Shown here one piece after another: positions 707 to 41,293 of a stretch of 64,000 nt of DNA (position 1 is its first letter; every line of letters starts with the position of its first letter). The notes under the pieces are model-generated. The model saw only the letters and a program-made list of their open reading frames with translations, was not told where the DNA came from and did not search any database. Position numbers and translations under genes: made by a program. Origin of the DNA: an uncultured virus (IMG/VR IMGVR_UViG_3300031884_000004) (lineage: Duplodnaviria; Heunggongvirae; Uroviricota; Caudoviricetes); IMG/VR virus record IMGVR_UViG_3300031884_000004. One strand, given 5' to 3'.

Positions 707-764
707 TTTTTGTCTCCGACTGTATTGAGGAATATACTAATAATTTATCTAAGATTATTATAAG

Positions 765-1088
765 TTAAAACTTCTTCCAGATATATGTTGAGTTACCGGT
801 ATTAAATCGAACGCATTCGACTTCGTCGCCATCAGCCGCAGTATCTTTCCATTCATCAGTAATTTTGGTGATCAGAGTCGTCTGCCACCAGTCTTGAGCG
901 CCGCATGAGCGAGCGTATAGAGATCCTACTCTCATGGCTACACCCACTCTAGGACGAGCACTATGCTCGTACTCTACACCCGAAATGTGATAGTTCTCAG
1001 CCTCTGTGTTGTCGGATGGCCAAAGAGCCATTGACATAGGACCGGAGTCCCCCATACCATCAGAAACCCTATAAAGAGAATATGTCAT
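765..1088 (-). CDS. hypothetical protein
   Basis: 107-aa ORF, SD-like AGGA upstream. Confidence 0.6.
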   Translation of the reverse strand: MTYSLYRVSDGMGDSGPMSMALWPSDNTEAENYHISGVEYEHSARPRVGVAMRVGSLYARSCGAQDWWQTTLITKITDEWKDTAADGDEVECVRFNTGNSTYIWKKF

Positions 1089-30401: not shown

Positions 30402-30469
30402 ATAAATAAGTGTGAGTCGCAGTATTACTAGTACCCACTCACTCTAACAGCTTATAAGTAGCAATCAGC
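30402..30469 (+). promoter_or_regulatory. conserved structured leader of HNH gene, copy 1
   Basis: ATAAATA-NN-TGTGAGTCGC-[hairpin]-CACTCACTCTAA...ATCAGC-ATG, shared with 41229-41293. Confidence 0.75.
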
Positions 30470-31114
30470 ATGTGTATTTATTGTGGTACAAACAAGTACC
30501 GTAATATCTATGAACATCACTACGGTCCAATTCCTAAGGAAGAGTCGGGTCGGTCATATGAAATACATCATATAGACGGAAATCATTCCAATAATAATCC
30601 TGCTAACTTGAAATGTGTATCTATACAAGAACATTACAACATTCATTATTCACAGGGTGATTGGGCAGCTTGTGTAAAAATGTCAAGTAGGATCAACTTA
30701 CTTCCCGATGAGCTAGTAGCCCTCGCAACAAAAAATGCTAACAAGCTAGTTAAAACGGGCAAGCATCCTTGGGTTGGGCCCAACAAGCACCAAGCGCAAC
30801 TAAACAGAGACCGCATTCTTAATGGAACACATAATTGGTTGGACAGGGAAGCTGCCAGTAAACGACAATTAAACAGACTTGCTGCCGGGACTCATCATTT
30901 TGTTAATGACCCCAAGAAAAAAGAAAAACATCCGCAGTATGACCATACTGTTAGAACTTGGAAAAATCGTATGACCGGGGAGGTAGTATCAATGACGAAT
31001 TATCAATTAAGGACATGTTATAATCTCAAGTCCGGTGCAATTAGTCGTATTGTAAATAACAAAGGACTTAACGCTACTGGAGGGTGGGAACTAGTAAGAC
31101 CTAGCCCCACTTGA
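30470..31114 (+). CDS. HNH homing endonuclease with GTH-x-F repeats (the only credible plus-strand gene)
   Basis: EIHHIDGNHSNNNPANL...EHYNIH; GKHPW, GTHNW and GTHHF repeats. Confidence 0.85.
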   Translation: MCIYCGTNKYRNIYEHHYGPIPKEESGRSYEIHHIDGNHSNNNPANLKCVSIQEHYNIHYSQGDWAACVKMSSRINLLPDELVALATKNANKLVKTGKHPWVGPNKHQAQLNRDRILNGTHNWLDREAASKRQLNRLAAGTHHFVNDPKKKEKHPQYDHTVRTWKNRMTGEVVSMTNYQLRTCYNLKSGAISRIVNNKGLNATGGWELVRPSPT

Positions 31115-31397
31115 GTTCGTAAAACACTGCTTCTTGTGGATCTTCAAACGATGGACAAAGTGCTATTCTATTCATAATATAGGTCGATGTGTTGGGGTAA
31201 TGTGTAGAAAATCTGCCTTGAAGGCTTTCCAAAATCCACATGCGCGACTCGATAGTAAAAGGAGTGCTTGATCTTATAAAATGTTCAGGGGTATGACTTA
31301 ATTCTCGGTCCATGAACCACTGATTTATGTTAATGTCGTCAATTGTTTTCACGGTTTTCTGCCTTAACAAGTGCGTATAACATTTCCAGCTTTTCAA
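31101..31397 (-). CDS. small protein of the F-x-L-(R/K)-W family (start probably at the GTG encoding VKTID)
   Basis: C-terminal SFEDPQEAVFYELKW. Confidence 0.6.
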   Translation of the reverse strand: MKSWKCYTHLLRQKTVKTIDDININQWFMDRELSHTPEHFIRSSTPFTIESRMWILESLQGRFSTHYPNTSTYIMNRIALCPSFEDPQEAVFYELKWG

Positions 31398-31602
31398 GTT
31401 GGTCGTTTAGTGCAACGTTGTTTTCTGCTAGCCTTACTATGTCATACATGATATCGCAACGTTTTTTACGCGCTCTATAATCGGATTCTGCTGTCCTAAT
31501 TCAGATTTTAAATCTTGTACTAGAATGCGATCAGACGACCCACGCTTTCTGGCGTAGATCGTCTTTCCGCTATCTGGGGATTCATAGATTACTTCCCCGA
31601 TG
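31339..31602 (-). pseudogene. small phage gene split by a -1 frameshift
   Basis: IYESPDSGKTIYAR in one frame; DIVRLAENNVALNDQLEKLEMLYALVK in the -1 frame after GTA AAA AAC. Confidence 0.5.
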
Positions 31603-31620
31603 CTTAGTATGCCCTTGAAG

Positions 31621-32910
31621 TTAGGACTTGCGATGGTCATCATAAATGGCCCATTGACCGAAGGGCGGGTGAGGATCGGGGTCACCGTGAATGATCCAAG
31701 TCGTATCACAGTAATTTTGATCGCCCCAGCTGCCGCAAGGATACCCGTCCGTGAAGACGATCAGACGAGCCGGAACTCGTCCTGCTTCCTTAAGGTCATC
31801 GAATACGCAGTCAAAGTCAGTGCCACCGCCACCGAACAGTTGATACTCCTCAATGTTTTCCATGTTTTCAGAAGAAAATTCTTGAGTGTTATAGACCTTA
31901 GTGTCGAATGTCGAGACCCGAAGGCTGTAGCCATCGAACGCATCCATCATGCCGGCAACTTCCGAAAGAAACTGCATACCTTGCTTCTGCGAGATAGAAC
32001 CTGACATGTCGATATAAATGTCAACGTCAATTTCTTCGCCAGGATTCATGCCGGGCATGACAGCGTCCATGTGCCAGCTGCGACGAGAAGGACGCATCCA
32101 AGTATAATCAGACTTGATAGCAGAGGTCAGATTAGTTTGGATCAATTCGCGCCAGGGCATGATCGGGCTAGTCAGTTGCTTGATCATGCGTTCAACGCCC
32201 TTCGGAACAGTGCCAGCCTCAGCCGTAGAAGCAGCGTTGATTACCGCTTGACGGACCTCTTGACGAATGCGGTCCTTTTCTTCCTGAGAAAGCTTGGGGC
32301 GGCCCTTGCCAGGTTTGTCGCCGCCTGCGCGGCCGTCGCCGTCGTCGTCACCGTCAACGTGATCGTCCAACATCTTGTCGAGGAGATCCTCAATATTGAT
32401 GTACTTGACATTCTTCATGAGGTCATCGTAGATGGCTTCTGCGGCCCAGTTTTCGTACTTAGACTCATACAAGCAAGGCACAGTAGTAATAAATTCGCCC
32501 ACGCGGTGACGCTTCAAGTCTGCGTTGACTGCATAGTCATCAGCGATGTTCCAGATTTCCGGATCACGATTGTCACGACGACCCATGTGATCGTAGACCA
32601 CGTGCAGAACTTCGTGACCAACGAGGAATTCAACTTCCTTCGTCTTGAGCATCATGATGAAGCGAGAGTTATAGTAAAATCTCAGACCGTCGGTCGCAGC
32701 AGTCGGACACCATTCGTCCGCATTAGTAAGAGCAAGACGAGTAGCAAGGTTGCCGAAAAACGCATGACGCAGAAGGAGACCGATGCGTGCCGTAACAAGA
32801 CGTTCGCGGGCTTGAGCATCAATCTTAGGATCCATAGGACCGATAAGATTTTCGTACTTCTTGCTGCGAGTACGCTTGCTCTTTTTAGTAGGGGTAATTA
32901 CGGCGCTCAT
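31621..32910 (-). CDS. VWA-like/putative metallopeptidase (DUF2201-like), partner of the MoxR-like ATPase
   Basis: TAATDG, HEVLH (HExxH), IDMSGS (MIDAS), GGGGTDF and FTDG motifs. Confidence 0.88.
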   Translation of the reverse strand: MSAVITPTKKSKRTRSKKYENLIGPMDPKIDAQARERLVTARIGLLLRHAFFGNLATRLALTNADEWCPTAATDGLRFYYNSRFIMMLKTKEVEFLVGHEVLHVVYDHMGRRDNRDPEIWNIADDYAVNADLKRHRVGEFITTVPCLYESKYENWAAEAIYDDLMKNVKYINIEDLLDKMLDDHVDGDDDGDGRAGGDKPGKGRPKLSQEEKDRIRQEVRQAVINAASTAEAGTVPKGVERMIKQLTSPIMPWRELIQTNLTSAIKSDYTWMRPSRRSWHMDAVMPGMNPGEEIDVDIYIDMSGSISQKQGMQFLSEVAGMMDAFDGYSLRVSTFDTKVYNTQEFSSENMENIEEYQLFGGGGTDFDCVFDDLKEAGRVPARLIVFTDGYPCGSWGDQNYCDTTWIIHGDPDPHPPFGQWAIYDDHRKS

Positions 32911-32939
32911 GAATGTGTCCTTTGATTAAGTTATAAGAC

Positions 32940-32968
32940 AATATAACAGAATGCGGCATGATATGCAA
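32940..32968 (-). promoter_or_regulatory. sigma70-type promoter
   Basis: TTGCAT-17 nt-TATATT; shares TTCTGTTATATT with the 11469 promoter. Confidence 0.55.
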
Positions 32969-32978
32969 TAGATAATAG

Positions 32979-33012
32979 AAAAAAGGGGAGGGACTGTCTC
33001 TAATCCCTCCCC
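32979..33012 (-). terminator. intrinsic terminator
   Basis: GGGGAGGGA...TCCCTCCCC stem followed by a T-run on the minus strand. Confidence 0.75.
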
Positions 33013-33025
33013 AGGAGCCGCTGAC

Positions 33026-34126
33026 TTAGTTGCCAGCTTCTACAATGTACTTGCCGTACTTCTTGTAGAATTCATCAAAGTTACGCAGTTGCGAGGGCTC
33101 AAGCGGCAGCTTGTAAGTCTTGAGGGCGATCTTAGCGCCCATGACCACCAGTTCCGTCTCGAAATTATTCATGATGTATTCGATGAAGTTGCTGCCCATT
33201 TCATGGAACTTCTTGTTGTCCACACGCTTGTTTTCGAGAGCGTCCTTCAGTTCATAGCACATGGAGATCGTCAACGAGTACATAGCCGAGATTTCCTTGA
33301 CCTTAAGATCCTTGACCCTACCTTCAAGAATGTCAGCCGGGTCAGGCATCTGACCAGCAACTCGACGGTGAGCCATGAACTTCGTTGCGAGACCATCACC
33401 GATCGCGCCGGCAACGAGATTGAACAGAGTATCGTTATCCACGTTTTGTTCGTCAACGAGCAGATCGCTCACGAAAGTCCAAGAACGAGGAGTAGCGAAG
33501 GCTCGACTGGAGCTCTTAGCGTCGAAGTCATAACCGTCTTGCTTAGAGAAAGACAGATAGCCGACAACGTCCTTGTGAATGTTCTTGTTGACCGCCCAAA
33601 TCTGCCAAGAAGCGAAATCATACTTCATTTCGAGGTGAACGAAGCGATTAGCAAGGGGCATGGGCATACGATACGTGACACCCTTGTCACTGTCACGGTT
33701 GCCAGCAGCAACGATGACGACGTTATCGGGGAGGACGTACTTACCGACTCGACGGTTCAGAACCAGCTGATAGCCAGCAGCTTGCACCGAAGGGGGAGCA
33801 GAGTTCATTTCATCGAGGAACAGAACGACGATCGGATATTGATCGGCGACTTCTTGACTGGGCAGATCGACGGGCTCAGCCCAATCCATCTTGCCGATGT
33901 ACTTATTGTAGAAGGGAATACCGCGAATGTCAGTAGGTTCCATCTGCGCCATACGCAGATCAAACATGATACCACCGAGTTCGTCAGTGATTTCCTGAAC
34001 GACTTCCGACTTGCCGATGCCCGGAGGACCCCAGAGGAAGACAGGACGCTTTGCCTTGAAAGCAGTGAGGATGGCCTTTCGGGCCTGAGTAGAAGTAATC
34101 GTGTGAGTGTCAATATCACGAGACAT
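33026..34126 (-). CDS. MoxR-like AAA+ ATPase
   Basis: GPPGIGKS, LFLDEMN, AAGN, NRF and TPRSW motifs. Confidence 0.9.
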   Translation of the reverse strand: MSRDIDTHTITSTQARKAILTAFKAKRPVFLWGPPGIGKSEVVQEITDELGGIMFDLRMAQMEPTDIRGIPFYNKYIGKMDWAEPVDLPSQEVADQYPIVVLFLDEMNSAPPSVQAAGYQLVLNRRVGKYVLPDNVVIVAAGNRDSDKGVTYRMPMPLANRFVHLEMKYDFASWQIWAVNKNIHKDVVGYLSFSKQDGYDFDAKSSSRAFATPRSWTFVSDLLVDEQNVDNDTLFNLVAGAIGDGLATKFMAHRRVAGQMPDPADILEGRVKDLKVKEISAMYSLTISMCYELKDALENKRVDNKKFHEMGSNFIEYIMNNFETELVVMGAKIALKTYKLPLEPSQLRNFDEFYKKYGKYIVEAGN

Positions 34127-34249
34127 GTTTATATAGCTCCTTAAGTTTGTTAAAAAACGAGATTGAGATTTGTTTCCTGTTGGTCAATCTATGATTAAAA
34201 ATAACGCAGCTAGAAAGCTAAGTCAACCGCTTTTTTGTTTCTGAATGTT

Positions 34250-34519
34250 TCAAGCCATCAACTGCGCAATGAGTAGCAATTGAGCTAAGTAGGACATGGC
34301 AGTTTGGATCTCCGCCTTCTTCTTATTACGTGCGATAGTCCAACGAGAGCGGGGGCCGGTTCTCCTTGCATACACCTCAAGTTTGCTTAGTTCTGAAATC
34401 AGACCATACAGATTAATATGTAACCTGTGCAAGTCGGAATTATAAGGAAGTCGGTTGAGTTGTTTAGTTAGATCGACTAGGACAGTCTGCGCTTCGATGG
34501 AGTCTAGAAATGTAATCAT
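34250..34519 (-). CDS. hypothetical protein
   Basis: 89-aa ORF after a TTGACA promoter-like site. Confidence 0.55.
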   Translation of the reverse strand: MITFLDSIEAQTVLVDLTKQLNRLPYNSDLHRLHINLYGLISELSKLEVYARRTGPRSRWTIARNKKKAEIQTAMSYLAQLLLIAQLMA

Positions 34520-34550
34520 GTCCGCACATTAATAAGCATTTGGGTAAATG

Positions 34551-35129
34551 TCAACCCCAGCCCAAACTCGCATTGTTTTTTTGTGCGAATTGAATAATCT
34601 GAATGAGTCTGTCCACGTACTTATTAATCTGATCTTGACTGAGGCCATAGTCGTGCATCGTTGGGCCGCGACCTATATGTGTGATTCCATGGTCATCTGT
34701 CCATTGATGTGTCGGGCCACGTTCTTGTTTAGGCTCTCTGGTGTACTGCTGAGCACCTTTGTTTTTAAGCAGTATCAATCGACGCATTATGTTAGATAAG
34801 TCTTTATTATGAATGACACCTGAATAATCCGGATCCAAACCTAACATTTCTTGAATAATTTTACCATTGGCGTTACTGACCGAAAGCTCCGGCGCATCTG
34901 AAAAAGTTTCCTCTTCGTACCCTTTGCCGCCGCAGAATACGCAAGGAAATTCGCCGTTTGAATATGTTCCCTTGCCTGTACCTTTGCAGTCAGGACATTC
35001 GTGTTTCTCTTTGCGTTCCCAATCAGAACCAGTCCAATACGTTTCGCCGGCATGTTCCCCTTTAGTAAAAGATTTTTCTACTACAGGATTAAACGTCATT
35101 CCTTCGTTCAGTACATCTTTGATTTTCAT
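34551..35129 (-). CDS. putative virion internal protein with DnaJ-type CxxCxGxG motifs
   Basis: MKIKDVLNE leader; CPDCKGTG and CVFCGGKG. Confidence 0.6.
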   Translation of the reverse strand: MKIKDVLNEGMTFNPVVEKSFTKGEHAGETYWTGSDWERKEKHECPDCKGTGKGTYSNGEFPCVFCGGKGYEEETFSDAPELSVSNANGKIIQEMLGLDPDYSGVIHNKDLSNIMRRLILLKNKGAQQYTREPKQERGPTHQWTDDHGITHIGRGPTMHDYGLSQDQINKYVDRLIQIIQFAQKNNASLGWG

Positions 35130-35130
35130 G

Positions 35131-37164
35131 TTAAATCTTTCCGTTAGGATTGGCTTGTGGAGGTATACCTGCCCGTGATGTTAGCCATCCGAATGCCTTA
35201 GCATTTTTCTTTATTGCGTTCGGTTTCACGTCTACCGTAAGCGCGGTTTTAAAACGAGGATCGTTCTTTTGGGAATTGCTTGGAATGTACCCTGAGGCTT
35301 CGGTTAGCGCTTGATAGAAAGTAGACGCAGGCTTGTTCCAGTTTGTTTCACTACGAATTACTCGCTGTACGCTCGGATCAAACGGATCAGCATCAGTAAA
35401 CCATCCCGGGTTGTCATCACCGTACTGGTCTTTGGCGATATCTAACAGCGTGTTAGGTGTCACGACCCCTGTGCCATCATAATATTTGCCGTTATATTCA
35501 ACTACAACATGATACAAGTCAGCTTCGTTGGCTACAATATCAGAAGGGGTTCCTAAATTATTAGCATCATTAAACAGCAAACCCAGCGTGACCGGGATTC
35601 CATCCTCTTTCAATTTTTTTGCTAAAGCCAACGAGAACATTCCACAGTTTCCACCGTATAATGCATCTTCGCCCATTCTTTCTCTTGCTTTATCGACAAG
35701 AGATAATACAGGATCATTCTTTTGGGCACTGTTTGGAATGTATCCTGAGTCTTTGTTTACGTTACCTGATTGTTGTTTTTTTTTGGTCAATCTGAATCCC
35801 ACAGAATTACCGTATGTAGGATCTCTATACGAATATGGTCCACCAACTTCATATGGAAACTCTTTTGACAGACGTTTTGCCATACTAGTGTACAGCTTAA
35901 CCTTTGTGGGTTCGTCTGCATAACATCCAAATGAGATTGAAGACGGTGAATTTTCTTTTATGTATGAACGAAGAATTGTAGCGATAGTAGACATTACCTT
36001 AATAGAGTCGCCGGTTTTAGTGATGCGAAATCTATCATCATTGCTAGACTGTCCCGCAGCATGAAATCGCAAACTAACTCCACCGTACATAACTTTAAGT
36101 TCAACTATATATTTTATATTATTTGCTGCTGTAAATTGGTACTCTAGCATGTGAGGTCCGCTAGAAGTTAGAGTATACGGATAAGGAGCATCTGCTAGTT
36201 CAGTTAAAGTCTGTTCCTCCAAAGAAGCCTTAGCTAACTTGTCATAATACTTCGGATCCTCGCTGATATGATCCAATGCAATCTCTCGCGCAATGTCTTT
36301 ATGACTAGTATGTTCTAGTTCGACCTTTATACCTTTGTCCAGTTGCTTTGCTATGGACATTCGGTCTACACCGTGTTTTCTAGCCAGTTCATCTACGGTG
36401 AGGGTTGGTTTATCTAGTAGCTGGTCATCTTCTTCGATGCTTAGCTTTTTACTGTGTAGAGAATCACGCACTGCATATAGGTCATCGATTCCGCCTTGCG
36501 CACGAATTGCTTTATATGCAAGATTTTCTGGACTAAATTCGCCACCTGTGTCAAGACCTGCCTGGCGATATCTCTTAATTAGCTTAATAGCTTTGTTGAC
36601 ACGATCTTCATCTTTAGTCTTTACTGCTAGACTGATTAGGTCGGTTAATTGATCGTACTTTGCTTTGGTAGCATTTTGATCTAGATTGGCTGTTTTTCTT
36701 TTAGGAATCTTGATCCACTTGTCATGAAGCAGGCTGTATTCACCTAATGATACGACCGGCTCTGCGGCATTCTGCGCATATAGTTCGACTGGAATGCCAT
36801 GCACTGTGATATCGTGCGAATCGTTATATAGAGTTTTCTTTGCTCTGAACAATTCCTGATAGACTTCATCGTCGTGTAGCTTGCTCATATTCACAACAAC
36901 GTGAAGGTCTAAGTCAGAATGAGGAGTATATGAGAAAGCTGCGTTAGATCCAGATATAGTTACGTCAACCACATCAAGATCACCTACGCCCAATTGGCTC
37001 ACAAAATCTTTTGCTATGACTAATAATTGGTCTCTGACCAATGGATCAAGCTGGTCATTCTTCCAAAGCTTTGGGTTTAGTTTGGTGTGGAATTTGACCG
37101 CATCTGATAATTTAAAAGAATGAAGTTCGTTGATGTCCATACTGTATTTAGTAATGAACATCAA
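35131..37164 (-). CDS. multidomain protein: Pol-beta-type nucleotidyltransferase, DUF5661-like domain, unknown domain and Cys-His-Asp domain (likely start 37140)
   Basis: GSNA...SDLDLH; KGIKVELEH...ALDHISEDPKYY; GNCGMF...HVVV...YYDGTG. Confidence 0.7.
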   Translation of the reverse strand: MMFITKYSMDINELHSFKLSDAVKFHTKLNPKLWKNDQLDPLVRDQLLVIAKDFVSQLGVGDLDVVDVTISGSNAAFSYTPHSDLDLHVVVNMSKLHDDEVYQELFRAKKTLYNDSHDITVHGIPVELYAQNAAEPVVSLGEYSLLHDKWIKIPKRKTANLDQNATKAKYDQLTDLISLAVKTKDEDRVNKAIKLIKRYRQAGLDTGGEFSPENLAYKAIRAQGGIDDLYAVRDSLHSKKLSIEEDDQLLDKPTLTVDELARKHGVDRMSIAKQLDKGIKVELEHTSHKDIAREIALDHISEDPKYYDKLAKASLEEQTLTELADAPYPYTLTSSGPHMLEYQFTAANNIKYIVELKVMYGGVSLRFHAAGQSSNDDRFRITKTGDSIKVMSTIATILRSYIKENSPSSISFGCYADEPTKVKLYTSMAKRLSKEFPYEVGGPYSYRDPTYGNSVGFRLTKKKQQSGNVNKDSGYIPNSAQKNDPVLSLVDKARERMGEDALYGGNCGMFSLALAKKLKEDGIPVTLGLLFNDANNLGTPSDIVANEADLYHVVVEYNGKYYDGTGVVTPNTLLDIAKDQYGDDNPGWFTDADPFDPSVQRVIRSETNWNKPASTFYQALTEASGYIPSNSQKNDPRFKTALTVDVKPNAIKKNAKAFGWLTSRAGIPPQANPNGKI
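35258..35749. repeat. 39-nt imperfect direct repeat (35258-35296 and 35711-35749)
   Basis: 34/39 identity by manual alignment; both copies encode SGYIPxxxQKNDP. Confidence 0.85.
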
Positions 37165-37186
37165 CTAACTTCACTTATATAAAGAA

Positions 37187-37576
37187 TTAACGACTGCCGA
37201 TTGGTTGTCCATTAACCGCAACAGATACGAGCGAGCCACCGTTCGTGCCATCCTTAAGAGGATGTACAACTACGACAGCCTTATCGCCGGACTTCAATGA
37301 AGTGCGCTTCCAACCGGAACGTGATAGACCATTTGGGCTACCGCCTTCGATTGACCATTCAACTGGCTTACCAGAGGAATCAGTCACAATTAGTTGAATC
37401 CAAGAATGCGGATTAGTCCATTGAAATTCTTTTACTGTTCCTTCCAATGTCACCGACTTTTGGTTGTCGAACATTGCGAACGAGTGGTGTGCGGATGCAG
37501 GTGCAGCCAAACTTAGTGCTACCAATGCAGCGATTGCAATAATTGACTTGTTTTTCATGATTTGTTCTCCTAACAT
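37187..37576 (-). CDS. host-like exported protein (DUF6152-like)
   Basis: signal peptide ending ASA|HHSFAMFD; WTNPHSW motif. Confidence 0.75.
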   Translation of the reverse strand: MLGEQIMKNKSIIAIAALVALSLAAPASAHHSFAMFDNQKSVTLEGTVKEFQWTNPHSWIQLIVTDSSGKPVEWSIEGGSPNGLSRSGWKRTSLKSGDKAVVVVHPLKDGTNGGSLVSVAVNGQPIGSR

Positions 37577-37631
37577 GTCAAAATTATTTATGACCTATAG
37601 GACGATATATCATATTTAAAGGTTTTATAGG

Positions 37632-37960
37632 TGCTAGTTGATTCTGTTTCGAGGCTCAACTAGCAAAGCCCAAAAGACTTATGCGGCTAACGCAAGGCCT
37701 TCATATGCATCATTTTCGTTTGCATTTAGTAATTTGAACTGATTGACGGTCGTTTCTTACCGTGTTCTCCACTTTCCTACTAGCCGTGAATCGATACTAT
37801 ACGCCCCCATAAGAAAACACACGATGCTCTCCCCGTCTTCTCGGCAGCTACCCCGATATCCCGCTTCACAGAGCCAGCGTCCTGTTATCGTGTGTTTACT
37901 GGTGGAGGCGAGGGGAATCGCACCCCTGTCTTCCCCGGTTTTAAGTCCGTATCAACGAAC
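37632..37960 (-). ncRNA. ssrA: circularly permuted (two-piece) tmRNA
   Basis: T-arm plus CGCCTCCACCA (ends 37900) lies upstream of 5' GGGGGCG (37808); G3:U70 pair; tag frame 37679-37723 ANENDAYEGLALAA*; 3' hairpin 37632-37665. Confidence 0.9.
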
Positions 37961-37992
37961 AAATACTATTTAATCATATATGACATTGCATG

Positions 37993-40533
37993 TCAACCGT
38001 ATTTTTGCACGAAGCGTGATTTTAACCATTCCCACTCGTAGCTCAATCGCAGTGCATCAAAATCGCCATCAACTTCATCGTAATAGGCTTCTGCGTCTTT
38101 TGCACCCTTGATGCTATATTCTGCAAAATCACCTTCAGCTTTAGTAAGCCAAGCTTCTAATCGCTCTCGGGCAATGTCGGTATCTTCGGCCTTCAATTTG
38201 ACCACTTCACGGAATGCGGTACGCCAAGTAGAGAACGGATCAGTGTTATAGTTTGCAGTACCGGACATGAGTGGAACAACTTCGTGCAGGTCATCCAACG
38301 TAAAGTCTAGTCCATAACCGTCATTCTCTAGCACTAATTGCTTATTATACGCGATCATCGCTTGGTGACCGTAGATCAATCCATTGACCGGATTCTTCGC
38401 ATGAAAGATATAATGCTTAGGTGCTTGCATTCGATCTGGTTGCCATGACCAATCAAAATTAGAATTGATGTGTAACTTAGCGAATACCGTAAATAACCAT
38501 GGTGTCTCGCTGGCTTCGGCAGCAGCATGATATGCAGCAACTCGACCATTAACTCCATCCACTCTGACTACCCTATTTGGTATGTTTTTAGTAATTTGAA
38601 GTAGATGCTCCCAGTTTTTTTCGGCCCCGGCTTCACCGTTACTGAGATACACTATGTCCATCGGTTTAGATTTGGTTAGTTTTTTTGCTCGCTTTATATA
38701 CGGGTAATCATACAGTTCACTTTTGACATAGTTTTTAGCCTCGCGAGGAATCGTAACTCTAGTTGCACCTGTACTAGAAATAATGATTGCTTTCTGTTCG
38801 GGTGACCAAAGACACATAGGTTCGGGATCAATTTCAGGATCCATATCCCAGTTTTCTTCAGTTACTAGAGTTACATAAGGAAAATCCCATTCATAATTTC
38901 TAGCATAATCCATATGTGTTTCATTTGGAAAATATGCACCTTCGATAGTTGTGGGTGTCATCAATCTTGAGACAACTTGATGTTGATTATAATTAATCTT
39001 TTCATAGTCTTCTAGACGATGCATATCTGCTATCAATTTGCGCAGCTTGTTGACGTTTACTAGAAACGTGTCTCCTAATTTTTGATTACCGCTCGGGAAG
39101 ACGTGGAGTTGTTCTTTGGTGTACGGATCGCAGATATAGCTAAAATCAAATCTGCTATAATCACACACGCTACTACAAATCCATACATAATGTTCACGAT
39201 TGACATCTAATTTACTGAGTACCTCCTTGAATGTTTTTAGATAATTGGTATCATATTTCACAGCAATGATGTTTCTTTCGCTCAGATTTTTACTGAGTAG
39301 ATCATCTTTTACTGTATCAACACCGTTACCATGGTCGATGATTACTATAGCATAAAGACAATCAACTGCCTTAGCAGGTGATCGTTTTACAAAATTTATA
39401 TTAGGCAAATGCTCAATGACTTTTATATATTTGGTATCATCAGCAAATGTATTTTTGTTAACCATAAAGGTTGTTCCCCAGTGTGACCACTGAGTTCCAA
39501 ACACATGAACTAAGTTCATCTGCCATGGGCTAGGATAGAAATCAAACTCAAATGACGAATAGTCTAATTCACTATTGAGAATCCAACATAGATTGGTAGT
39601 TGATTTAGTCACACAACGATTGATCGTGTCAACCCAGCTGTTCAGATATCTAGTTTTAGTTACGTTGCCCATACGCTCAGATAATTGCTGAAAGCGTTCT
39701 TGTGCCTGAGGATTTCCTTTATCGACAAAGAAAATATCGATCTTGGTTCGTACATCTAGTACCTTATCCTCAATGTAGTTAATGTCCCGATAACCACGTG
39801 CCCACATCTTACCATTAACAAAGTAAGTCTGGGAGTTTATATTGTCTTTCGTACCAAATGCATTTATGTGATATACGTTCTTACTGTCAGGGACCCATTT
39901 AAAGTCAAACCCAGAATAATCAATTTCAGGATTCAATGCCCAAAAGATTTCATTAGTGTGGTCGTTGATTAAATCTTCCAATGTAGTAGTGATGTAGTAC
40001 TTCGAAAACTCTAGGTCTTCTAGTATGACCTCCTTGCGTTCTAGATGTACTATGGTTCCGTCATTATAGGGAGTGACGTATCTGGGTCCGTCGTTTTCAT
40101 CGAGCAGAGTACCGAATTGATATATGTATGGAGGAGACGTAGGATCTGGGTGCCAAGAAAAGTCAAACCTAGATTTATCCAGGGCCGGATCTATAATCCA
40201 AAAATCATTGATTTCATTCTTGCGTTGAATTGGGGGAACATCGGTTCGATAGATAGTATAATCACCGGCTACCTTAGGACACAGCCATGTACCACTATCT
40301 TTTTGATGTTGGCTAGGCCATACATTGTCGTGTGCCTCTGCCCAAATATCTTCGTCAGGTAATAGCTCGAAATCAAAGTCCCAATCAAATTTACGGTAGT
40401 CACAAAACTCGTTGATAATCCAAAAATGCTCAGTCGTACACTGATTCCTAGCATCTTCTAGTGATTCAGCAAATTTTTCTCTTGGATGGACATTGGGTTT
40501 GGAACCGGAGTAGAATACTTCTCTAATTGCCAT
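37993..40533 (-). CDS. large glycosyltransferase-like protein with repeated domains
   Basis: repeated FDFxW.P...Y...FG units; C-terminal domain paralogous to 53446-54387 (RVDGV.G..AA..AAAEAS, WR..FRE.VK). Confidence 0.6.
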   Translation of the reverse strand: MAIREVFYSGSKPNVHPREKFAESLEDARNQCTTEHFWIINEFCDYRKFDWDFDFELLPDEDIWAEAHDNVWPSQHQKDSGTWLCPKVAGDYTIYRTDVPPIQRKNEINDFWIIDPALDKSRFDFSWHPDPTSPPYIYQFGTLLDENDGPRYVTPYNDGTIVHLERKEVILEDLEFSKYYITTTLEDLINDHTNEIFWALNPEIDYSGFDFKWVPDSKNVYHINAFGTKDNINSQTYFVNGKMWARGYRDINYIEDKVLDVRTKIDIFFVDKGNPQAQERFQQLSERMGNVTKTRYLNSWVDTINRCVTKSTTNLCWILNSELDYSSFEFDFYPSPWQMNLVHVFGTQWSHWGTTFMVNKNTFADDTKYIKVIEHLPNINFVKRSPAKAVDCLYAIVIIDHGNGVDTVKDDLLSKNLSERNIIAVKYDTNYLKTFKEVLSKLDVNREHYVWICSSVCDYSRFDFSYICDPYTKEQLHVFPSGNQKLGDTFLVNVNKLRKLIADMHRLEDYEKINYNQHQVVSRLMTPTTIEGAYFPNETHMDYARNYEWDFPYVTLVTEENWDMDPEIDPEPMCLWSPEQKAIIISSTGATRVTIPREAKNYVKSELYDYPYIKRAKKLTKSKPMDIVYLSNGEAGAEKNWEHLLQITKNIPNRVVRVDGVNGRVAAYHAAAEASETPWLFTVFAKLHINSNFDWSWQPDRMQAPKHYIFHAKNPVNGLIYGHQAMIAYNKQLVLENDGYGLDFTLDDLHEVVPLMSGTANYNTDPFSTWRTAFREVVKLKAEDTDIARERLEAWLTKAEGDFAEYSIKGAKDAEAYYDEVDGDFDALRLSYEWEWLKSRFVQKYG

Positions 40534-40565
40534 AACAATATTTACACTAATTACAGTATGTCATA

Positions 40566-41228
40566 TTATTTTAAGACCCTACACTTATCGAAATGGTATC
40601 GATGCATGTTAGTTTTTCCGCCAGTTTTGTTGCAATGCGGACAAGTTACCTGAATTTTATTTGGATGATTCGTAAGAAAGTGGTGAGTTCCATTCTCTAA
40701 CAATGTTTTCTGAACATTTCGTTGAAATTCTCCGTTCCCCATTAAATGATGAGTCCCGTTCTCCACCAACCTTTGTTGAGTTCTTCTTTGTATATCACCA
40801 CTAAGAAAATGGTGAGTTCCTTCCCTCACTCGCTTAGCGTTAGATTTTCTTTGAACTTCTCCTCCAGAGAAAGCATTCGTCCCGTTTTCAGTTTGTCTGA
40901 GTACACTGTCTTTTCCTAACGATGACCCATCTGGCCTTTTTAAAAAGTGATGTGTGCCGTTTGCGATGCGGTTGGCGCCGGTTAATTTGGCGAGGTCTGA
41001 TAGTTCCTCTGGCGTCAACCGTAGCTTTCTTGAAATGAGCCAACATGCACCATAATCTCCTTGCTGATAATGAATATCGTAATGATCTTGTATAGACAAT
41101 GCGATTAAATTTTCCGGTACATTATTATTGCGGTTACCATCTATATGATGAACATCGCAACTTCTTCCGTCACCGTCTTTGGGTATGGGACCAAAATTCT
41201 GTTCGTAAATTTTACGATAAATAGACAT
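40566..41228 (-). CDS. HNH homing endonuclease with five GTHHF-type repeats and C-terminal CPHC Zn motif
   Basis: DVHHIDGNRNNNVPENL...DHYDIH; start at MSIY inferred from the AGGAG SD and alignment with its paralog. Confidence 0.85.
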   Translation of the reverse strand: MSIYRKIYEQNFGPIPKDGDGRSCDVHHIDGNRNNNVPENLIALSIQDHYDIHYQQGDYGACWLISRKLRLTPEELSDLAKLTGANRIANGTHHFLKRPDGSSLGKDSVLRQTENGTNAFSGGEVQRKSNAKRVREGTHHFLSGDIQRRTQQRLVENGTHHLMGNGEFQRNVQKTLLENGTHHFLTNHPNKIQVTCPHCNKTGGKTNMHRYHFDKCRVLK

Positions 41229-41293
41229 GCTGATAGCTCCTTCTAGCATTAGAGTGAGTGGGGATTGCAGTCCCGCGACTCACATCTATTTAT
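41229..41293 (-). promoter_or_regulatory. conserved structured leader of HNH gene, copy 2
   Basis: ATAAATA-GA-TGTGAGTCGC-GGGACTGCAATCCC-CACTCACTCTAA-TGCTAGAAGGAGCT-ATCAGC-ATG. Confidence 0.75.

Follow-up and report, generated by a model that had tools for sequence, protein, structure and literature searches.

A portable cassette of about 80 bases heads hundreds of unrelated selfish nuclease genes in uncultured aquatic phages. Two of its copies lie in the stretch of DNA analysed here, a window of 64,000 nucleotides (nt) from an uncultured member of the Caudoviricetes (IMG/VR record IMGVR_UViG_3300031884_000004), which belongs to a 181-kb viral contig; the source genome is 52% complete and distantly related to the jumbo phages RaK2, PA5oct and Atu_ph07. 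We propose, with a probability that we put at roughly 0.6, that the cassette is an antisense expression-and-restraint module for free-standing homing endonucleases: its conserved fold suits the strand opposite the gene, where there is probably an RNA, and two promoter-like boxes face each other across it.

An initial annotation of the window had singled out two leaders, each heading an HNH gene. Both stand, in position and in reading, and the features that we assign to them and to their genes are as follows (aa, amino acids).

30402–30472, plus strand: leader of copy 1.
30403–30408, plus strand: late-promoter-type box TAAATA of copy 1, putatively serving the nuclease mRNA, with the start predicted at 30414 from leaderless-gene spacing and a motif like that of phage CBB.
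30412–30442, strand left open: hairpin 2 of copy 1, with an outer stem GTGAGT/ACTCAC, two single bulges flanking one pair, an inner stem and a 7-nt loop.
30444–30468, minus strand: hairpin 1 of the antisense strand of copy 1, with a CUGA/UUAG base holding a constant G-U, an upper stem and a loop complementary to the Shine-Dalgarno region.
30403–30469, minus strand: predicted antisense RNA of copy 1, of about 65 nt, starting at G 30469 and with a U-rich end near 30403.
30475–30480, minus strand: facing late-promoter-type box of copy 1, reading TATTTA on the gene strand, in codons 2–4.
30470–31114, plus strand: gene of copy 1, a free-standing HNH endonuclease of 214 aa (HNH_3 match).
41293–41226, minus strand: leader of copy 2.
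41287–41292, minus strand: late-promoter-type box TAAATA of copy 2, putatively serving the nuclease mRNA, 4 nt past a carbamoyltransferase stop codon.
41254–41283, strand left open: hairpin 2 of copy 2, with the outer stem, the bulges, an inner GGGA/TCCC stem and a 6-nt loop.
41230–41252, plus strand: hairpin 1 of the antisense strand of copy 2, its loop exposing the anti-Shine-Dalgarno sequence CCUU.
41229–41292, plus strand: predicted antisense RNA of copy 2, of about 64 nt, starting at G 41229.
41218–41223, plus strand: facing late-promoter-type box TAAATA of copy 2, in nuclease codons 2–4.
40566–41228, minus strand: gene of copy 2, a free-standing HNH endonuclease of 220 aa (HNH_3 match), co-directional with its neighbors.

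Copies 1 and 2 are the only two exact matches in the window to CACTCACTCTAA. As the initial annotation had claimed, the leader is better conserved than the open reading frames (ORFs) behind it, with 56/71 nt identical between the copies versus 223/408 nt in the aligned ORF core; the two HNH_3 proteins share 43% identity over 141 aa, and their C-termini cannot be aligned. Since these values are joined by agreement at only 31/60 of the third positions at identical residues, the pair is not a recent duplication. The conserved unit runs some 10 nt into the ORF, where TATTTA is the reverse complement of the upstream box. The protein of copy 2 has 37% identity to I-TevIII-like proteins of T-even phages across 98% of its length, and no solved relative of it was found. 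The gene of copy 1 is inserted opposite to its neighbors, its stop codon overlapping the end of a 98-aa host gene; its ORF is intact, and given a degenerate Shine-Dalgarno sequence (AAGTAG for AAGGAG, window 30455–30462) it may be poorly translated. A nuclease domain, sporadic intergenic insertion and empty alleles are found for both ORFs and mark them as probable free-standing homing endonucleases, with cleavage predicted.

The question of how far the cassette extends beyond the window was addressed with patterns, a structure descriptor and a covariance model. The descriptor identified six sites in the source genome and none in each of 10 shuffles, and that genome holds six cassette copies heading 6 of its 8 nuclease-like loci. 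Exact-pattern matches in viral and metagenome contigs numbered 88, at least 123, at least 122 and at least 126; six more in GTDB genomes, all on contigs of metagenome-assembled genomes, are probably pieces of phage. At least 410 distinct copies were parsed in total. The covariance model counted 13, 13, 7, 3 and 1 copies in five large contigs, picked for holding a copy or a related locus, and found none in four complete related phages, which are themselves nearly devoid of such nucleases (one GIY-YIG match and no HNH). Nor did the model find a copy in Atu_ph07, 2.275.O, PA5oct, RaK2 or ph0011, a weak test with 0–3 candidates in each and no positive control. Among cultured phages, blastn gave no match in 50,697 records. 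Where loci were found by protein alone, the cassette was present at 26 of 43. Within the source genome, two of the six cassette-led nuclease genes (G000:C1, near 106935 on the minus strand and 142184 on the plus strand) look broken, a short ORF being followed by a separate one behind an intact cassette, and the copies at 107960 and 106935 stand in tandem.

No Rfam family matches the element, a match that had been named in advance as a possible refutation; the two others named then, recent duplication and a lack of covariation, were not borne out either. With Rfam 15 the window yielded only a transfer-messenger RNA (tmRNA); copy 1, at E values up to 10, only three sub-threshold chance matches; 20 loci, none; and 17 divergent loci, at E values up to 0.5, only tRNAs and two sub-threshold matches outside the element. 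Hammerhead, hepatitis delta virus (HDV)-like and other ribozymes were set aside: Rfam matched none, and inspection by eye showed none of their cores. Two HNH genes have leaders of another kind: at L437 (about 735–830, plus strand) there are TAAATA and a long hairpin, with TATTTA in the start of the ORF and an antisense strand that folds better (−35 versus −20 kcal/mol), a possible sister family of the cassette; at L751 (G001:C1 near 318400, minus strand) a conserved-looking leader past TAAATA went unmatched by the covariance model.

The nucleases served are diverse, so that the link to HNH genes drawn in the initial annotation holds in part: the cassette is tied to mobile nucleases but is not specific to HNH genes. 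Motif types among 102 complete ORFs were 78 GIY-YIG-like (the majority), 23 HNH and one other, and a PD-(D/E)xK-type gene is among those headed by the cassette. Pfam searches on 30 of the ORFs returned HNH, HNH_3, GIY-YIG, SegE, NUMOD3 and DUF7487/TnsA-like domains, with no domain common to the 30 proteins, nine of which had no Pfam match; 178 of 196 further ORFs matched these nucleases, and most of the remainder look nuclease-like by eye. OMEGA/HEARO-type RNAs belong to one nuclease family with an RNA-binding architecture. A nuclease-bound RNA of that type was rejected, since HNH_3, HNH, GIY-YIG, SegE and DUF7487/TnsA-like proteins are served and no common domain was seen among the 30, nine of them without a Pfam match. 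The same breadth argues against both the autoregulatory operator and the nuclease-bound RNA which had been suggested at first. I-TevI does repress its own late promoter through an operator (PMC2988022, in its account of that enzyme), but here nucleases whose DNA-binding parts are unrelated stand behind one and the same core, and the stem sequence is free to change as pairs; we regard an operator bound by each nuclease as extremely improbable.

The evidence for a folded element, and for the strand on which it folds, comes from comparison across copies. When 64 antisense sequences are aligned, pairing holds in 98.9% of cells, and double-sided changes occupy 168 cells versus 48 in shuffles, which bears out the proposal of a covarying structure; RNAalifold recovers the same fold unaided. 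Read on the antisense strand, the order is G, hairpin 1, a single A, hairpin 2 and a U-rich tail. Hairpin 1 has a CUGA/UUAG base with a constant G-U and a loop exposing the anti-Shine-Dalgarno sequence; hairpin 2 has a 6-bp stem, a bulged G, one pair, a second bulged G, a 4-bp stem and a loop of 6–7 nt. Stem positions in 187 elements, counted after L301 had been excluded as a false descriptor match, comprise 2999 Watson-Crick pairs, 324 that are A-C on the mRNA strand and hence G-U on the opposite one, a single G-U on the mRNA strand, and 18 others. Two columns supply 274 of the 324, and the remaining columns still divide 50 to 0 for the antisense strand. In 106 metagenome elements the G-U count is again 50 versus 0, and in 108 elements chosen for divergent outer stems (49 stem variants, overlapping slightly with the 187-element set) it is 70 versus 1; pattern matches that do not pair were excluded from both sets (18/124 and 2/110, respectively). 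A downstream CAG anchor, lying outside the search pattern, is present in 100 of the 108. One element, L714, combines arms from two outer-stem types, the left from one and the right from the other, and is a recombinant or an assembly chimera.

That this fold might be a cis-regulatory 5′ leader on the mRNA, with translation gated by a mini-stem at the ribosome site, was among the first suggestions, and it has points in its favor: the base of hairpin 2 is where the mRNA is predicted to start, Watson-Crick pairs, valid on both strands, predominate, and hairpin 1 reaches the Shine-Dalgarno sequence with its upper stem. In copy 1 hairpin 2 can fold on either strand, its wobbles suiting the minus strand, and copy 1 taken alone has an mRNA-strand fold no better than shuffles (z about 0). 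Across copies, variation consistently breaks pairs on the mRNA strand and keeps those on the antisense strand, which is the more stably folded in 161 of 184 elements, and an mRNA leader leaves the facing box unexplained; we consider it very unlikely. Long-range pairing of TAAATA with TATTTA on a read-through mRNA, as an I-TevI-like mask, appears in one fold, but the flanks show no covariation by eye and both ends fit promoter geometry.

The second box, which the initial annotation had missed, also counts for an antisense module. The two TAAATA boxes face each other over a core of about 58 bp. Boxes of this kind mark late genes in phage CBB (ATAAATA; PMC5259590), and similar ones are described for cyanophages (PMC2984593) and T4 (PMC2988020) in the parts of those papers that treat late promoters. 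TAAATA clusters upstream of genes in the source genome. Of 152 elements, 150 have a reverse-complement box (TATTTA or TACTTA) 3′ of the core; its distance from the core is 5 nt in 123, and it occurs in all three reading frames (110/20/17). In cassette ORF starts the Ile codon is ATT in 130/130 cases versus 757/1911 elsewhere, and the preceding base is T in 130/130 versus 24/90; the box is therefore best read as a nucleotide signal, and an amino-acid constraint on the M-x-I-Y start is ruled out by the codon test. Among host genes with an ATG behind TAAATA the spacer peaks at 5 nt (27/258, with 15 at 4 nt, 12 at 3 nt and 9 at 6 nt), which places the transcription start at the sixth base. Starts so predicted fall on a pyrimidine-purine step in 176/187 and 145/177 cases for the two boxes, and lie at the ends of the fold; with a 3-nt spacer, which both window copies have, they lie two bases inside the stem. 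The structure thus lies downstream of a late-type promoter, as originally noted, with both hairpins past the box and the predicted start at the stem base.

Three further observations concern these boxes. An ATG lies 3–6 nt past TAAATA in 63 of the 258 genes (G000 and IMG/VR loci), which suggests that leaderless late mRNAs are frequent in this phage group. Orphan cassettes without a nuclease were seen at L121 (131–330, plus strand) and L094; both also lack the facing box, a number too small to weigh, and the remnant at L121 precedes a gene that we take to encode a large terminase. In L497, L501, L514, L527, L539 and L553 the CAGC anchor is inside the ORF (M-T-S or M-S-S starts), so that in these variants the predicted antisense RNA would cover the start codon too.

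The facing box could alternatively be an outward promoter, the fold acting as a 5′ stabilizer or insulator, which would restore or protect host-gene transcription cut off by an inverted insertion rather than pair with the nuclease mRNA. Most cassettes are indeed inverted in host operons: among 95, both flanks are opposite in 48, both are the same in 21 and 26 are mixed. T4 seg and mob genes carry promoters that serve their neighbors (PMC2988022, in its examples from T4), and in 45 of 74 inverted cases there is no TAAATA between the cassette and the host gene. Yet the box is retained in co-directional insertions (45/48, with the G-U in 48/48), a setting in which read-through would yield antisense RNA to the host gene, as it is in inverted ones (68/74); at site 1, the insertion site of copy 1, the host gene retains its own TAAATA in empty and filled alleles alike; and many inverted neighbors have, by eye, promoters of their own resembling TTGAC...TATAAT. 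We consider an outward promoter unlikely.

The apical loops bear on the pairing proposed between two complementary RNAs. Among 137 distinct loops, 18 exact reverse-complement pairs were found against a null of 0.8. Counting either strand, 79 of the 137 have a YUNR motif (null 47), which is therefore not universal, and 21 of 47 loops of 7 nt are anticodon-loop-like (CUNNN[A/C]A; null 0.9), 16 on the mRNA and five on the antisense strand. In kissing RNAs the U-turn may sit in the sense or the antisense partner (PMC4485353, for the systems it treats), and loops that can be flipped would suit two complementary kissing RNAs rather than a single-strand binding site. Because the loops occur inverted, we rejected a conserved one-strand RNA of the T-loop or tRNA-like kind. 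Computed net pairing energies are about −82 kcal/mol for cognate partners and −5 to −6 for shuffles; non-cognate copies from one genome give −25 to −44, and these intermediate values make cross-talk among them possible.

The same data bear on the idea that the antisense strand gives a stable small RNA which binds a protein or acts on a target in trans (as RNase shield, as ligand of a phage or host RNA-binding protein, or as nuclease scaffold), its overlap with the leader being incidental. The near-invariant bases and bulges persist over 49 outer-stem variants, and the anticodon-loop-like 7-nt loops would fit such a role. Against it, the loops invert freely, the nucleases are of three folds without a common domain, and copy number tracks nuclease number, the four complete related phages having no copy; we think it distinctly unlikely.

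Insertion of the cassette was followed by comparing filled and empty sites in relatives, as had been recommended, and empty alleles were found. Among 80 loci orthologous to site 1, both host genes are joined across a gap of 54–78 nt in 37; five are identical to the window, two (L229 and L230) carry, at that very position, a GIY-YIG gene headed by the other stem subtype, and the rest lack the element there. At site 2, that of copy 2, the gap in the closest relative is 8 nt, and at no other locus does the element follow that carbamoyltransferase stop codon. Identical cores of 55–64 nt precede proteins without detectable similarity in three pairs among 356, two of them HNH versus GIY-YIG, and stem type barely follows protein identity below 80%. 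From the empty sites, the alternative occupants of site 1 and the shared cores before unrelated proteins, we conclude that the cassette inserts together with its nuclease and that genes are exchanged behind it. The mobile cassette first envisaged is thus supported in part, by empty sites and swaps; a role as an end signal is conjectural. C-terminal GTHHFL-type repeats and a zinc-finger-like end are common to the GIY-YIG protein of L229 (1693–2367, minus strand) and the HNH protein at window 40566–41228 (minus strand), showing domain shuffling behind the cassette.

Such an end signal would be a single-stranded DNA hairpin, attC- or REP-like, that drives insertion or exchange. Sites of the attC type have extrahelical bases, a variable terminal loop and a one-strand bias, likenesses which count for this explanation together with the identical cores before dissimilar proteins, the weak tie between stem type and protein, and the different cassettes occupying site 1 in different phages. 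On the other side, there is no conserved AAC/GTT core, the equivalent column varying as a pair; the cassette has no recombinase gene, and arrays of it were not seen; each end carries a promoter box that shows start-site geometry; and exchange is explicable by ordinary recombination in shared sequence. A DNA hairpin of this kind seems to us quite improbable. Integron attC sites proper, which have an invariant AAC/GTT core, lie downstream of a promoterless gene and form arrays, were rejected: the core column varies, the cassette lies upstream of its gene and carries promoters, and its copies are dispersed.

Under the antisense module that we favor, the outer TAAATA box would drive the nuclease mRNA, with hairpin 2 at its 5′ end, and the box in codons 2–4 would drive an antisense RNA of about 65 nt, running from the G just before the start codon to hairpin 2 and the U-rich tail. 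The two RNAs would first make contact through the loops of hairpin 2 and then pair into a duplex that covers the ribosome-binding site and keeps the nuclease from being translated; A-C mismatches would keep the ribosome-site hairpin of the mRNA weak, the same positions being G-U in the antisense RNA. The antisense level would climb as genome copies multiply and so damp nuclease output in late replication, in the manner of multicopy inhibition in IS10; related copies within a genome could partly cross-repress each other. Transcription of both strands, termination, kissing, repression and copy-number damping are steps that we infer.

Several points weigh against this proposal. The transcripts of both strands are predictions from sequence, and the label of late promoter rests on motif likeness and spacing; a late sigma factor (Pfam Sigma70_r2) was not found in the 52%-complete genome. 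About 12 near-invariant bases (the CUG/UAG with its G-U, the single A linker and two bulged G residues) are more than control by base pairing needs, and G-T pairs in a single-stranded DNA hairpin would give an identical strand bias. A simple terminator scan flagged hairpin 2 in neither copy, and part of the U-rich tail arises simply because the outer promoter box lies on the other strand. Exact TATTTA is absent in 26 of 100 divergent-stem copies, several of which carry TACTTA. Identical hairpins occur in 2/171 comparisons within genomes versus 9/649 between them, and loops are no more diverse within genomes.

If the proposal is true, the tolerance of some phages for 13 such nucleases would be explained by a single 80-base module that serves the HNH, GIY-YIG and PD-(D/E)xK types. 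The cassette is in any case a common structured RNA candidate absent from Rfam, and would offer a compact natural riboregulator with swappable loops; as T4-type late transcription can be reconstituted, its promoters, duplex and cross-repression could be assayed without culturing the phage. A more speculative extension, which we hold to be doubtful, is that the cassette is a lineage-wide socket through which a clade of large phages holds up to a dozen selfish nucleases of three unrelated folds, swapped in behind one RNA control. A dedicated protein would read the invariant bases, and repression in trans, by which resident copies would damp one another as well as the nucleases of co-infecting phages, would amount to an RNA-based immunity to homing.

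Two other features of the window were noted. A permuted tmRNA gene of alphaproteobacterial type (37588–37993, minus strand; tag ANENDAYEGLALAA) abuts the stop codon of an 846-aa gene and hints at an alphaproteobacterial host. At 31621–34126 (minus strand) a DUF2201 vWA/metallopeptidase gene adjoins a gene for a MoxR-like AAA ATPase.

We found no description of the cassette in the literature, although the sets of Weinberg 2017 (PMC5737381) or Fremin et al. 2023 (PMC10690425) may hold it under another name. Candidates in the latter such as DNAVirus_8080, 8282, 8377 and 227 are likewise IMG/VR structured RNA candidates, of 67–105 nt and within 25 bp of GIY-YIG and/or HNH genes; they comprise only 29–88 sequences each, with no function given. 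The control of phage homing endonucleases described in PMC2988022 proceeds, in the sections on regulation, by mRNA hairpins, promoter choice and operators and not by a dedicated antisense RNA. I-TevI, I-TevII, I-TevIII, segB and Aeh1 mobE resemble the present case in being restrained by a late promoter and RNA structure, and the protein of copy 2 is I-TevIII-like, but in those sections I-TevI-type hairpins work through the mRNA strand, with late starts bypassing them. The cassette fold lies wholly downstream of the box, favors the other strand and has a second promoter. A bypass hairpin of the I-TevI type, with its promoter inside the hairpin and late transcripts lacking the 5′ arm, was therefore rejected, both hairpins lying past the box.

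Among plasmid copy-control antisense RNAs, the details compared are those of CopA and RNAI. A bulged stem, a loop of 6–7 nt, YUNR in the sense or antisense loop and a U-rich end are shared with the RNAs outlined in PMC4485353; the target in the cassette would be a nuclease mRNA, not a replication initiator or primer, and loop-based incompatibility groups were not seen for it. CfrI of cyanophage S-PM2 (PMC2984593), the one case of a phage antisense RNA at a homing endonuclease to emerge from our literature search, also overlaps such a gene; unlike the cassette it is about 225 nt long, links psbA and one nuclease, has no assigned function, and is not described in the relevant part of that paper as a portable conserved module. 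The IS200 RNA art200 (PMC4513863) is, like the predicted RNA, a small RNA opposite the structured 5′ leader of a mobility gene, but in that report's characterization it is tied to one transposase family, Hfq-linked and 90 nt long, and the cassette has no Rfam match. The nearest parallel is RNA-OUT/RNA-IN of IS10/Tn10 (PMC5006887), in the features that paper sets out: both concern the enzyme of a mobile element and facing promoters, and in IS10 an antisense RNA of about 69 nt blocks ribosomes at the translation start, a control that rises with copy number. In the cassette, too, promoter-type boxes face each other around the translation start region, and the comparative fold places a structured small RNA on the opposite strand. 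It differs from IS10, as characterized there, in its phage late-type boxes, an overlap of about 55 nt spanning the whole leader, two hairpins, three nuclease folds and the lack of any sequence or Rfam match, and it is known from sequence alone. By analogy, then, the cassette would work like IS10 RNA-OUT and art200 while belonging to neither.

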